30,349 nucleotides of DNA, taken from IMG/VR virus record IMGVR_UViG_2778261692_000006. The stretch is one strand, 5' to 3'. How positions within the stretch are numbered: the first letter of the stretch is position 1; every line of letters starts with the position of its first letter. The notes under the pieces were generated by a model, which saw only the letters and a list, made by a program, of their open reading frames with translations, searched no databases and was not told where the DNA came from. The DNA is from a virus (Duplodnaviria; Heunggongvirae; Uroviricota; Caudoviricetes). This document shows positions 8,747-12,315 of this stretch, piece by piece. The position numbers and the translations under genes were made by a program.

Positions 8747-9166
8747 TTACTCCGGTGGGGGATTATCTTTAAGCCTGCCTCTCAAATATTTTTCTACATA
8801 CTCATCGATTTCTTTTAGCCGGACTTCAAATAGCTCAATCATTCGTTGTTGTTCTGAGCCAGGTAGCTGGTTAAACAACTCAAGAAGTTTTCGTTGGGAT
8901 TCATTTAACCACAATTCAGAAGATTCCTGTTCTCCAAATAGGAGCTCAGGAGGAGATATGCCAAGTGCCTTTCCCAATACGACAGCGTCATGCACTCCAA
9001 CATTTCTGCTGCCCGCCTCATAGTTACCTATACGCGATTGCGTCCATCCGCAGATTTCAGCAAGTTTTCCTTGAGATAAACCAAGCTTCTGCCTGCGCTC
9101 TTTAAGACGCATTGCAATTTTGTCATTGAGCCTACTAGCGGCAATTTTTTCGTTTTCTTTTTCCAT
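8747..9166 (-). CDS. Prophage repressor, XRE-family helix-turn-helix, with no LexA-like peptidase domain
   Basis: 139 aa; HTH segment LGLSQGKLAEICGWTQSRIGNYEAG; divergent from the cro-like gene; too short to carry an S24 autocleavage domain. Confidence 0.8.
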   Translation of the reverse strand: MEKENEKIAASRLNDKIAMRLKERRQKLGLSQGKLAEICGWTQSRIGNYEAGSRNVGVHDAVVLGKALGISPPELLFGEQESSELWLNESQRKLLELFNQLPGSEQQRMIELFEVRLKEIDEYVEKYLRGRLKDNPPPE

Positions 9167-9262
9167 TGCATCCTTGTATCACGAATCGTGATTTACATAA
9201 AACACAAAACAGCTTGACCATATAACACAAGGTGTGTTTAAAATTGTCATCGGAGGTTTTCA
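9167..9262. promoter_or_regulatory. Divergent promoter/operator region between repressor and cro-like gene
   Basis: Palindrome ATCACGAATCGTGAT (9178-9192); -35-like TTGACC (9214-9219); second palindrome ACACAAGGTGTGT (9225-9237) in the spacer before an AT-rich -10-like segment. Confidence 0.6.
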
Positions 9263-9505
9263 ATGAACAAAATTTCAACATATCGAAAACAGCTTGGGCT
9301 GTCTCAAAGACAACTTGCTGTTCAGTTAGGGTGGATACAAAGCCGACTGGCAAATTACGAAGCAAATTTTCGTACCCCTGGACTAGAGGAGTGCAGAAAA
9401 ATTGTTTCTACCCTTAATCGGCTTGGCGCTCATTGTGGACTTGACGATGTATTCCCCCCAGACGGTAAGCATAGCGAAAACAGCATAGGAGCGGTTGATT
9501 CATGA
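9263..9505 (+). CDS. Cro-like XRE-family helix-turn-helix regulator
   Basis: 80 aa; HTH segment LGLSQRQLAVQLGWIQSRLANYEAN; divergent from the repressor; stop overlaps the next start (ATGA). Confidence 0.75.
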   Translation: MNKISTYRKQLGLSQRQLAVQLGWIQSRLANYEANFRTPGLEECRKIVSTLNRLGAHCGLDDVFPPDGKHSENSIGAVDS

Positions 9506-9924
9506 AAATCAGGCATGAGCACATCGAATCAGTGTTGTTAGCCCTGGCAGCCGAAAAAGGGCAGGCGTGGGTCGCTAACGCAATTACTGAAGAATATCTG
9601 CGCCAGGGGGGCGGCGAATTGCCCCTTGTACCAGGCAAGGACTGGAACAATCAGCAGAATATCTATCACCGTTGGTTGAAAGGTGAAACGAAAGCGCAAA
9701 GGGAAAAAATTCAGAAACTGATCCCTGCGGTTCTGGCAATTCTTCCGCGCGAGCTGCGTCACCGACTCTGCATCTTCGATACCCTGGAACGCCGTGCATT
9801 ACTGGCGGCGCAGGAAGCGTTGAGTACGGCAATTGATGCGCATGATGATGCAGTCCAGGCCGTTTACCGGAAAGCACATTTCAGCGGTGGTGGGTCGCCC
9901 GGCGATTCTGTCGTAGTGCATTGA
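9502..9924 (+). CDS. YdaT-like protein (proposed CII-type regulator position)
   Basis: 140 aa, the same length as Rac YdaT, directly downstream of and coupled to the cro-like gene; assignment by position and size only. Confidence 0.45.
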   Translation: MKIRHEHIESVLLALAAEKGQAWVANAITEEYLRQGGGELPLVPGKDWNNQQNIYHRWLKGETKAQREKIQKLIPAVLAILPRELRHRLCIFDTLERRALLAAQEALSTAIDAHDDAVQAVYRKAHFSGGGSPGDSVVVH

Positions 9925-9969
9925 TTGAAATTGATCGTGCCGGATTGTTTTGTTCGGTATCAGTTAAAT

Positions 9970-10411
9970 GTAACGCTGCGAGCGTTACAAGGTGAAAACA
10001 AATGGCTTCAAACTGGATAAAGCTCGAGGTTATTACGCCGGATAAGCCGGAAATATTCAGGCTTGCTGAGATTCTGAATATTGATCCAGATGCCGCATTA
10101 GGGAAGGTTATTCGCTTCTGGGCATGGGCGGATCAACAAATGATAGACGGTAATGCAGATTGTAACGCTCGCGGCGTTACAAAAAGTGCAATAGATCGCA
10201 TCACTTTTATGGCTGGTTTTGCTGATGCGTTAATTCAGGTTGGATGGCTGATCGAAAATGACGGTGGGCTTTCTCTACCTAACTTTGAACGTCATAACGG
10301 GAAAAGCTCTAAAAAACGGGCGGTTACAAACGAGCGAGTAACAAAAATACGCGAACTGAAACGAAAAGGTAACGCTGCCAGCGTTACACAAACGGATCAA
10401 AAAGCGTTACC
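9970..10411. repeat. Iteron-like palindromes GTAACGC-N3/5-GCGTTAC, putative replication origin
   Basis: Palindromes at 9970-9988, 10162-10180 and 10369-10387, plus half-sites near 10323-10342 and 10404-10411; followed by an acidic-linker coding stretch and an AT-rich segment. Confidence 0.5.
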
Positions 10412-10790
10412 AGAGGAAGAGGAAGAGGAAGATATAAATACTGATCTCCCCCTAAATCCCCCTCGCCAAAAACGAGCGTCTAAAAAATTCGAGCCGGAGG
10501 CTATCGAGCTGCCTGACTGGTTGCCGGAAACACTCTGGCATGAGTGGGTTCAGTTCAGGCAGGCATTGCGAAAACCGATTCGAACGGAGCAGGGCGCTAA
10601 CGGGGCGATACGGGAGCTGGAAAAATTCCGCCAGCAGGGTTTTTCACCTGAGCAGGTGATTCGACACAGCATCGCCAATGAATACCAGGGCTTGTTCGCG
10701 CCGAAAGGTGTTCGACCTGAGACGTTACTCCGACAGGTTAACACCGTTTCGTTACCGGATAGTGCGATCCCGCCAGGCTTCAGGGGGTAA
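10002..10790 (+). CDS. Replication initiation / replisome organiser protein (lambda O-like role, YdaU-like)
   Basis: 262 aa; immediately upstream of the DnaC-like gene; contains the iteron-like palindromes and an acidic EEEEEED linker. Confidence 0.6.
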   Translation: MASNWIKLEVITPDKPEIFRLAEILNIDPDAALGKVIRFWAWADQQMIDGNADCNARGVTKSAIDRITFMAGFADALIQVGWLIENDGGLSLPNFERHNGKSSKKRAVTNERVTKIRELKRKGNAASVTQTDQKALPEEEEEEDINTDLPLNPPRQKRASKKFEPEAIELPDWLPETLWHEWVQFRQALRKPIRTEQGANGAIRELEKFRQQGFSPEQVIRHSIANEYQGLFAPKGVRPETLLRQVNTVSLPDSAIPPGFRG

Positions 10791-10796
10791 CAGACC

Positions 10797-11543
10797 ATGA
10801 AAAATATTGCGACAGGAGGCGTTCTGGAGCGTATCCGCAGACTGACCCCACCACATGTAACCGCCCCATTCAGAACGGTTTCGGAGTGGCGCGAGTGGCA
10901 ACTTGCTGAAGGCCAGAAACGTAGCGAGGAGATCAACCGCCTGAATCGCCAGTTGCGGGTGGAAAAAATTCTGAATCGCTCAGGCATCCAGCCGTTGCAC
11001 CGTAAATGCTCGTTTGCGAATTACCAGGTGCAGAACGACGGCCAGCGATACGCGTTGAGTCAGGCGAAATCTATCGCTGATGAACTGATGACCGGGTGTA
11101 CAAATTTTGCGTTCAGCGGAAAACCTGGTACCGGAAAAAACCATCTGGCGGCGGCTATCGGGAATCGCCTGCTGAAAGATGGTCAGACAGTGATTGTGGT
11201 TACCGTGGCTGATGTTATGAGTGCTCTACACGCCAGCTATGACGACGGGCAATCAGGCGAAAAATTTTTGCGGGAACTGTGCGAAGTGGATCTGCTGGTT
11301 CTTGATGAAATTGGCATTCAGCGCGAGACAAAAAACGAGCAGGTGGTGCTGCATCAGATTGTTGATCGCCGGACAGCGTCGATGCGCAGCGTGGGGATGC
11401 TGACAAACCTGAACTATGAGGCCATGAAACCATTGCTCGGCGAGAGGATTATGGATCGCATGACCATGAACGGCGGGCGTTGGGTGAATTTTAACTGGGA
11501 GAGCTGGCGTCCGAATGTCGTCCAGCCAGGAATTGCGAAGTAA
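10797..11543 (+). CDS. DnaC-like helicase loader (IstB-like AAA+ ATPase, YdaV-like)
   Basis: Walker [16 protein letters not shown] and Walker B LLVLDEIG. Confidence 0.85.
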
Positions 11544-11565
11544 TTTTTACCGGGAGAAAAATTTA

Positions 11566-12315
11566 ATGGAGACTGTTTTTGACGCACTGAAAGCAATGGG
11601 AAAAGCCACATCCATAGAACTTGCTGCGCGACTTGATATCAGTCGTGAAGAAGTGCTGAACGAACTATGGGAACTGAAAAAGGCTGGTTTTGTTGATAAA
11701 AGCGCGTACACCTGGCGTGTGGCTGATAACAACGTTCAGCAGGAACAGCCAGCGCCGGAAGAAACTACTACGGCAACAGTGACAAAAATTTCGGAGAGCG
11801 ATTTAACCGCGACGATTGAACAACGCGGACCACAAACGGCTGATGAGCTGGCTACATTGTTTGGTACCACATCACGCAAAGTGGCTTCAACGCTGGCAAT
11901 GGCAATCAGCAAAGGTCGTCTGATTCGCGTAAATCAGGGCGGTAAATTTCGTTACTGCATACCGGGCGATAATTTACCAGCAGAGCCGAAAGCAGCATCG
12001 GTAGCGGAAACTGATGGTAAGGCCTTTCCTCAGCCCGCAGGTGTTGCGTTACCAGTACAGGAAGCTGCAACACAGGAAGATATTAAAACAGAAACTGTGG
12101 CGGACATTGTGCAGTCGCTGCCATCGTTTACTGAAACGCGAGCGGATGACCTGGTTTTACCATCACTGCATATGGCAAACCGCGAACTGCGTCGGGCGAA
12201 AAATCATGTCCAGAAGTGGGAGCGTGTCTGCGCCGCGCTGCGTGAGTTGAACAAGCACAGGGATATTGTACGACAGATTACTGATTCTTCCCGCCATGTT
12301 GCATCGGAAAAGTGA
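11566..12315 (+). CDS. Hypothetical protein with two winged-helix-like repeats
   Basis: Chosen start METVFDAL (track ORF begins at 11515); two segments resembling wHTH ([30 protein letters not shown] and [30 protein letters not shown]). Confidence 0.5.

Follow-up and report, generated by a model that had tools for sequence, protein, structure and literature searches.

The segment at 9970-10457 of the window, by which we mean the whole 30,349-bp stretch of DNA analyzed here, is probably the replication origin of a prophage, bound by the protein whose gene it overlaps. We infer from the sequence that the gene's own product would bind here, that an adjoining tract would unwind and that replication would start at this place. 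Comparison of the locus with its relatives shows the palindromes at its core to be under selection as DNA, to co-vary with the N-terminal domain of the encoded protein (N-domain) and to be strictly linked to that domain. An earlier note on this DNA had proposed a lambda-like origin bound by its gene's own product; DNA-level selection, covariation with the N-domain, the placement of the tract at the domain linker and the position of the gene in the 'O' slot all argue for that proposal.

Taken together with its relatives, the locus may belong to a large and apparently undescribed family of initiators and origins (~4,300 cluster representatives at E<=1e-10), a broader reading that we regard as evenly balanced. 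In such a family the origin would lie in the initiator's own coding sequence and be kept as DNA across phyla, as two 19-bp palindromes ~200 bp apart, half-sites in helical register and a GA-rich unwinding tract, and the DNA would dictate the protein motifs G-N-A-x-S-V-T, A-L-P and R-E-E-K-R-R-E. Repeated switches of specificity would have come about by single base changes made symmetrically in both arms (for example GTAAC to GTCAC), in step with residues of a basic helix and forming a natural recognition-code series, and the arrangement would supply a rule for locating origins in thousands of temperate phages including epsilon15, SPN1S, TL-2011b, CP2 and phiPSA1. In the literature on oriJ, YdaU, the motif, the epsilon15 origin and initiators that bind within their own gene, our coverage of which was incomplete, no description of the element was found.

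Palindromes in and beside the initiator gene

The pattern GTAACGC-N5-GCGTTAC (GTAACGCNNNNNGCGTTAC) has exactly three matches in the window, designated copy 0, site 1 and site 2 (Table 1), against a chance expectation of 0.03 estimated from shuffles. None of 100 shuffles reached three copies, so the pattern is not a product of chance, and the three palindromes that the earlier note had placed in and near the initiator gene are borne out as exact matches at 9970, 10162 and 10369. A search that tolerated up to two mismatches brought out no fourth palindrome in the window. Each copy is 19 bp long, with arms of 7 bp around a 5-bp spacer; the copies at 9970 and 10369 can also be read with 8-bp arms and a 3-bp spacer, which explains why the spacer had previously been given as three or five. 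The distances from copy to copy are 192 and 207 bp. Copy 0 is non-coding, and sites 1 and 2 share one reading frame. The DnaA box TTWTNCACA has no match in the window versus 3.5 expected, an Rfam scan of 9000-11600 returned nothing relevant, and a scan of 9150-10900 for sigma-70-like sites found nothing promoter-like near any palindrome copy, the upstream one included.

Within E. coli and Shigella, 52 haplotypes were compared by per-site pattern analysis; indels of the (GAR)n run and of the spacer confound an ungapped comparison. The spacers are polymorphic and the arms almost invariant, those of copy 0 being intact in 50 of the 52 haplotypes, with a variable spacer, and those of site 1 in all 52. 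The length of the purine run changes by 6-nt steps, and the run is always all-purine.

Table 1. Features of the window, with positions counted from its first letter.
Feature	Position	Strand	Remarks
HTH repressor gene	8747-9166	-	
pR-like promoter candidate	9244..9273	+	Sole sigma-70-like match in 9150-10900; consensus match only; would serve the cro-like, cII/YdaT-like and initiator genes
cro-like HTH gene	9263-9505		
YdaT/cII-like gene	9502-9924		
Palindrome copy 0	9970..9988	.	GTAACGC-TGCGA-GCGTTAC; intergenic, 14 nt 5' of the start codon, adjoins the Shine-Dalgarno sequence
Replication initiator gene	10002..10790	+	262 aa; phrog_2509 match, AF2 models
Degenerate left half-site GTAATGC	10150..10156	+	12 bp 5' of site 1; arose with a 12-bp (4-aa 'NADC') insertion
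Palindrome site 1	10162..10180	.	GTAACGC-TCGCG-GCGTTAC; codes C54-N-A-R-G-V-T60; low-confidence loop of the N-domain
Basic helix coding region	10305..10367	+	aa 102-122 with invariant K104, R106 and R112; helix in both AF2 models; candidate DNA-recognition element
Palindrome site 2	10369..10387	.	GTAACGC-TGCCA-GCGTTAC; codes G123-N-A-A-S-V-T129; disordered linker; core of the putative origin
Right half-site GCGTTAC	10404..10410	+	Codes A135-L-P137; fits the half-site array (~12-bp register); belongs to the 22-nt module
Polypurine (GAR)n run (10412-10432), then A/T-rich segment	10412..10457	+	Putative DNA-unwinding element; codes the acidic linker
DnaC-like helicase loader gene (YdaV homolog)	10797..11543	+	NCBIfam PRK12377 E=1e-152, DnaC E=4e-91; Pfam IstB_IS21, Bac_DnaA
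DUF1627 YdaW homolog			Gene after the loader in the Rac-type order

The initiator and its gene neighborhood

The window is a Rac-type lambdoid prophage of E. coli. The region around the initiator gene is its immunity and replication module, where the gene order of repressor, cro-like gene, ydaT, ydaU, ydaV and ydaW is that of the K-12 Rac prophage. The loader gene starts 7 nt downstream of the initiator gene. The gene that follows the initiator is likewise DnaC-like in PAN70, phiPSA1 and Carin1; it is a DnaB-type helicase gene in Raharianne and three other loci, and lambda-P-like in a further two. Lambdoid 'O' proteins classically have partners of these three types.

The initiator matches PHROG 2509 over its full length (residues 1-262, E=1.2e-89); the name of that group, 'replication initiation protein', is an annotation. 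At E<=0.01 the 262-aa protein matches no Pfam family, including Phage_rep_O and PF07120 (DUF1376). It is laid out as a predicted DNA-binding N-domain (aa 1 to ~122), a disordered acidic linker (aa 123-150) and a C-terminal helical domain (aa ~176-246), the last of which is common to the window initiator and K-12 YdaU. The residues encoded by the sites, 53-57 and 123-150, are loop or linker segments of low confidence in the AlphaFold models.

Three assignments to known proteins were considered and rejected. Only the last 19 residues match DnaT (primosomal protein I), at 16.9 bits versus an equivalog cut-off of 201. The lambda O family gives no Phage_rep_O match, and the hhalign probability of the family profile against lambda O is 0.07%. 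An N-domain of the DUF1376/YdaU type is likewise excluded; the window protein has no match to PF07120 whereas K-12 YdaU matches it at E=2.7e-26, and hhalign aligns the C-terminal domain only.

Homologs and conservation of the sites

A search with the N-terminal 125 residues returned 6,782 representatives of 50% identity clusters at E<=0.001, and 4,272 at E<=1e-10. Their hosts are found among the Enterobacterales, Pseudomonas, Burkholderiales, Xanthomonas, Vibrio, Planctomycetota and Verrucomicrobiota including Akkermansia, and the named phages that carry the N-domain include epsilon15, SPN1S, TL-2011b, CP2, PAN70 and phiPSA1. The N-domain family has no Pfam model and no solved structure. Among plasmids the domain was found in just two, both large and phage-like, and the plasmid search returned no minimal replicon with it.

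Approximately 390 loci were gathered and reduced to 149 non-redundant representatives, at least 102 of which have two or more cognate palindromes within the gene. The palindrome recurs at ~+148 to +172 and ~+337 to +395 from the start codon, with a freely variable spacer. Proteins with sites at the same two positions are only 35-55% identical, their hosts range from 35 to 68% GC, and the conserved intragenic sites span Enterobacterales, Pseudomonas, Burkholderiales, Planctomycetota and Verrucomicrobiota. The upstream counterpart of copy 0 is largely limited to relatives from Enterobacterales; one viral contig has it at -45.

Spacing in related phages had been named in the earlier note as a point on which the proposal could be checked. 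The same two intragenic positions are retained, and the distance between sites 1 and 2 is spread over 189-260 bp across the family (279-300 bp in the GTCCGC group) and shows no robust helical phasing. An early sample had clustered near multiples of 10.5 bp; over 84 pairs, R was only 0.26-0.29, and the distinct distances were not significant.

Selection on the DNA and covariation with the protein

Codon columns were picked from the protein alignment alone, blind to the DNA. At the site columns Asn is AAC in 68/68 cases, His is CAC in 31/31 and Ser is AGC in 51/51, and Val is GTT, GTG or GTC and never GTA; usage elsewhere in the same genes is AAC 67%, CAC 69%, AGC 26%, GTT 26% and GGT 19%. Site 1 uses the same codons in hosts whose GC content ranges from 39 to 68%. 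All three reading frames are represented among the copies of site 2 (48, 31 and 14 representatives), and in the epsilon15/phiPSA1 group the first site has been relocated to +65, where it codes S-A-L-K-A-D. Fixed codons, the use of three frames, the relocation of site 1 and the non-coding copy 0 together indicate that selection acts on the DNA and not on the peptide. Since the coded residues fall in low-confidence loop or linker segments, the motif G-N-A-x-S-V-T is most simply a by-product of the DNA element.

Variant palindromes point in the same direction. Types with two or more cognate sites are GTCACGC-N5-GCGTGAC, the GTCACA type, GTCCGC(A/T)-N5-xGCGGAC, CTAACGC...GCGTTAG and GTCGCCA; GTTGCGC...GCGCAAC has two sites in one locus and a single site in two others, and GTGGCGC was seen as single sites only. 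A change in one arm is always mirrored in the other, and in most loci the two sites of a gene are both changed. Asn-AAC goes with Val-GTT in 65/68 cases and His-CAC with Val-GTG in 29/30 (Fisher p=1.5e-22, not corrected for phylogeny); a synonymous position, the last base of the Val codon, thus changes in step with the base that opens the Asn/His codon 12 nt upstream. A neighbor-joining tree from which the site-encoded residues were left out requires at least 15 changes of site type. Apart from residue 55, which is directly encoded by the site, site type is best tracked by residues 109, 113, 114 and 116 on one face of the basic helix, and a second group that tracks it comprises residues 13, 15 and 17 in the TPDKPE motif. 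These associations are suggestive, with phylogeny as a confounder.

Half-sites and the purine-rich tract

The half-site GCGTTAC occurs 13 times in the window versus 2.9 expected (4.5-fold enriched), and 7 of the 13 lie within 9970-10410. Two groups of extra half-sites had been reported previously. The one near 10404-10411 holds up at 10404-10410: 47 of 57 GTAAC-type representatives have a 3' half-site 25-37 bp past the start of site 2, the half-site of the window belonging to the +37 class. The other, at 10323-10342 (an everted pair of GTTAC at 10323-27 and GTAAC at 10338-42), has no positional counterpart or enrichment in relatives and is not supported. Near site 1, the four relatives that share the 4-aa insertion have GTAACGC where the window has GTAATGC. 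Counted from the start of site 2, extra half-sites are most frequent at -12 and -24 in left orientation and at +25/26 and +37 in right orientation. The half-sites around site 2 thus face inward and recur once per helical turn (11-12 bp register).

A conserved AT- and purine-rich tract of ~40-50 bp lies 3' of site 2. In the window it begins with 21 nt of purine only at 10412-10432, the longest homopurine or homopyrimidine run of the window, followed by GATATAAATA, and 10407-10457 is the least stable duplex inside the gene. The acidic linker-coding stretch described in the earlier note corresponds to this all-purine run, and the AT-richness ascribed to the segment that follows is only modest (57% over 10411-10450). 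Averaged over the family, AT content at +20 to +70 from site 2 exceeds that of each locus by 0.2 (20 percentage points), and purine content on the coding strand reaches 89%. Among 53 representatives from hosts of at least 55% GC, 140 of the 147 Arg codons in the tract are AGR (95%) versus 13% outside it in these genes (p=1.4e-92), which indicates that the tract, too, is under selection as DNA. In viral contigs, 88 exact matches to the 22-nt module GCGTTACCWGAGAAGAGAAGAG were found; wherever enough upstream sequence was available (83/83), the match lies inside an N-domain gene, at +360 to +447.

Alternative explanations

The palindromes could serve solely as autoregulatory operators or roadblocks by which the initiator limits its own transcription or translation, with replication beginning elsewhere. 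Many plasmid initiators repress their own genes via inverted repeats, which provides a precedent, the upstream copy adjoins the Shine-Dalgarno sequence, and the protein-DNA covariation fits such a role as well as it fits an origin. We nevertheless regard autoregulation alone as unlikely, given that no promoter-like site lies near any copy, that the family-wide sites are intragenic while the upstream copy, for which the earlier note suggested autoregulation, is lineage-restricted, that the strictly linked polypurine/AT tract under DNA-level selection would be left unexplained and that nothing else stands out as a candidate origin. Autoregulation and origin function are compatible with each other. 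It is also conceivable that a different factor binds the sites, whether from the host or from the phage (the loader, a neighboring regulator or a methylase, for example), since it is from comparative data that we infer binding by the gene's own product, and a cytosine methylase gene lies directly upstream in epsilon15 and Vibrio phages. Such a factor is quite unlikely; the neighbors vary (DnaC, DnaB or P partners; regulators) yet the sites stay with the N-domain in 83 of 83 cases, site type co-varies with residues of that domain, and hosts from several phyla argue against a host factor of the same specificity.

Each copy can also be folded as a 7-9 bp stem (z-scores -1.5 to -3.3), and compensatory changes in both arms would be expected of a stem as well, so the palindromes, instead of being bound as duplex DNA, could act as hairpins in mRNA or single-stranded DNA, for instance in translation, in stability or in single-strand priming; in a variant of this explanation, a cruciform or hairpin may be recognized by a protein. 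Against hairpins, which we consider very unlikely, the arm sequence itself, beyond its pairing, is kept across phyla, and mismatches in the arms show no G·U bias on the mRNA strand (20 versus 20 mirror A·C, with 85 other mismatches). Isolated half-sites in a ~12-bp register, a specificity type that tracks protein residues and the lack of any Rfam family match argue in the same direction. The view that the peptide G-N-A-x-S-V-T is what is conserved, with the palindrome a by-product of codon usage, draws on the similar heptapeptides encoded in the same frame by window sites 1 and 2 (C-N-A-R-G-V-T and G-N-A-A-S-V-T) and on residues G50, N51, A52, V59 and T60, which are invariant or nearly so in the protein alignment. 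It is effectively refuted by the non-coding copy 0, by site 2 in all three frames and site 1 relocated in the epsilon15 group, by synonymous codons fixed against the background (GTT 26%, AGC 26%, GGT 19% elsewhere), by the silent Val base that co-varies with the Asn/His codon and by the location of the coded residues in low-confidence loop or linker regions.

Proposed mechanism and significance

If the segment is the origin, dimers of the N-domain, with a winged-helix-like core and the conserved basic helix, would bind the 19-bp palindromes, and further subunits would occupy the half-sites approximately one helical turn apart around site 2. Site 1, joined in Enterobacterales by the upstream copy, each ~200 bp away, could enter a higher-order complex, and the resulting strain would open the adjoining polypurine/AT-rich tract. 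The C-terminal domain would then recruit the DnaC-like loader (YdaV) together with host DnaB.

An origin inside the initiator gene is the classical mechanism of lambda-like phages; what is notable here is that DNA within coding sequence is conserved across phyla, that specificity has repeatedly switched in a symmetric manner and that the element is of practical use for finding phage origins. If confirmed, the element would provide a simple sequence signature for the origins of very widespread temperate phages and prophages whose origins are unmapped, including those of Salmonella, E. coli, Shigella, Klebsiella, Pseudomonas, Xanthomonas, Ralstonia and Akkermansia. It would also be a case of DNA function constraining protein sequence, seen in invariant codons and in 95% AGR arginine codons in high-GC hosts, with a bearing on annotation, on codon-optimization or recoding of phage genomes and on the reading of 'conserved motifs'. 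Symmetric specificity switches paired with one helix face would make a tractable system for the evolution of initiator-origin specificity and of replicon incompatibility or immunity.

Comparison with known origins

Iteron plasmid origins with winged-helix Rep proteins (P1, F, R6K, pSC101, RK2) carry direct-repeat iterons and DnaA boxes, a combination that was not found in the window; the window sites are palindromes, there is no DnaA box, and the putative origin lies within coding sequence. In Bacillus phage SPP1, G38P reportedly binds repeats in its own gene 38 (oriL), beside an AT-rich region, and helicase-loader and helicase genes follow. That system is said to differ in having direct-repeat boxes and an N-domain of another family, and the sole link to it is a weak match of the window initiator to phrog_4880, 'replisome organizer' (E=0.0067).

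The Rac prophage of K-12, whose origin oriJ has been reported active (PMC3945230), shares the C-terminal domain and the A-rich segment with the window at 88-97% DNA identity. Window positions 10533-10800 are 96.6% identical to K-12 DNA, and the C-terminal domain aligns with K-12 YdaU at an hhalign probability of 91.7%. The N-domain of K-12 YdaU, by contrast, is DUF1376 and unrelated to that of the window. K-12 ydaU also has repeats in mid-gene, but these are ATGTTCAAACA/TGTTTGAACAT and not GTAACGC palindromes. The window gene and K-12-type ydaU can be aligned only from the A-rich segment onward (~10428), a mosaic joint which implies that the N-domain and its sites are swapped together as one specificity module between genes that have the A-rich segment and the loader-binding C-terminal domain in common.

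The closest parallel is with lambda, and likewise with phi80, 82 and P22 gene 18, where the initiator gene contains the origin, at the linker joining a DNA-binding N-domain to a loader-binding C-terminal domain. In ori-lambda, 19-bp inverted repeats inside gene O bind O dimers and a neighboring 40-bp A+T-rich region opens, and transcription from pR passes through the origin (PMC5043065). In the window, site 2, the half-site and the tract are at the junction of the N- and C-terminal domains, in the linker of aa 123-150, with site 1 in a loop of the N-domain. The inverted repeats are again 19 bp long and predicted to suit dimers, and an A+T region of ~40 bp that is a candidate for opening lies next to them, purine-rich on the coding strand and coding for a charged linker (K/E/R in lambda). 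As in the lambda operon of pR, cro, cII, initiator and loader, the initiator gene and then a loader/helicase gene would be read from a candidate pR.

The likeness to lambda that the earlier note saw in iterons lying within the gene therefore stands for the intragenic layout and not for a tight iteron array. Lambda has four contiguous iterons within ~85 bp, whereas the window has two or three full palindromes ~190-230 bp apart; no tight array of four or more iterons was found there, and only the half-sites, in 11-12 bp register, are closely spaced (-24, -12, +25, +37). The tract of the window and its family is a GA-rich polypurine run rather than simply AT-rich as in lambda, the recognition sequence persists from phylum to phylum, unlike lambdoid iterons, which vary among close relatives, and the N-domain has no detectable homology to lambda O. 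Most likely, to judge from these comparisons, the element works like a lambdoid origin that stands outside the lambda O family and is built around an unrelated DNA-binding domain.

Number and Placement of Sites in Relatives

In some relatives the palindromic sites are duplicated in tandem, 23-24 bp apart (Table), and an example of the peptide encoded across such a pair is ...GNAGTVSIGNAGSVT..., which shows that the number of sites changes by short in-frame duplications. One planctomycete contig (L059) has a different arrangement, with a short N-domain ORF of 119 aa that holds no site and two palindromes of the GTCAC type lying ~800 bp downstream. This suggests sites that are not coupled to the coding sequence, or a split gene.

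Table. Positions of the features discussed; those marked + are counted from the start of the gene.
Feature	Locus	Position
Duplicated sites	L030	+148 and +172
Duplicated sites	L026	+346 and +369
Duplicated sites	L056 and L157	+345 and +368
GTCAC-type palindromes	L059 (planctomycete contig)	+820 and +853
Site 2	Window	10369-10387
(GAGGAA)n purine run	Window	10412-10432
Initiator C-terminal 19 residues	Window	10734-10790
Overlap of DUF1627 ORF and DnaC-like gene	Window	11515-11543
Region of methylase/initiator overlap	L146 (epsilon15)	342-1511
Region of methylase/initiator overlap	L152 (Vibrio phage 1.211.A)	504-1508
N-domain gene	L483 (plasmid pE16EC1016-8)	6001-6771
ydaU	L003 (E. coli BW25113 Rac)	1901-2758
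Repeat cluster in ydaU	L003 (E. coli BW25113 Rac)	2044-2359

Surroundings of Site 2 and the Initiator Terminus

The length of the purine run, (GAGGAA)n, differs in 6-nt steps between close relatives, being 15, 21 or 27 nt among the 52 haplotypes from E. coli and Shigella; it behaves like a small microsatellite, with each step lengthening or shortening the acidic linker by two residues. Site 2 and the CTTTTCGTTT that follows it on the minus strand together score as intrinsic-terminator-like, a pattern match only, and could represent a stop to antisense transcription. The initiator ends in ...DSAIPPGFRG, and its final 19 residues resemble the last 19 of the model for DnaT (primosomal protein I) in NCBIfam, with a match (E=0.0039) that falls far below the model cut-off, and the ending EIPPGFRG is also found in the Klebsiella homolog P0047. 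The initiator and DnaT may thus have in common a short motif for contacts with DnaB, DnaC or the primosome.

Neighboring Genes and a Plasmid Carrier

In epsilon15-like phages and in Vibrio phages, the beginning of the initiator gene overlaps a gene for a C5-cytosine methylase. Given the CG dinucleotides in the palindromes, the sites might be subject to modulation by methylation. In the window, the last 29 nt of the DnaC-like gene also belong, in a different frame, to a DUF1627 (YdaW-like) ORF. An N-domain gene with 64% identity is carried by the E. coli plasmid pE16EC1016-8 (CP088505.1), a 52 kb, non-mobilizable element in which Mu-like transposase genes adjoin this gene; the "plasmid" is possibly a phage genome in episomal form, or a phage-plasmid.

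Comparison With K-12 Rac

In the Rac prophage of E. coli BW25113, a cluster of direct and inverted repeats (ATGTTCAAACA/TGTTTGAACAT) is located mid-gene within ydaU, which is of the DUF1376 type, and the A-rich segment common to K-12 Rac ydaU and the window lies immediately downstream of these repeats. The ydaU repeats may be regarded as candidate initiator sites of oriJ, the reported active origin of K-12 Rac.
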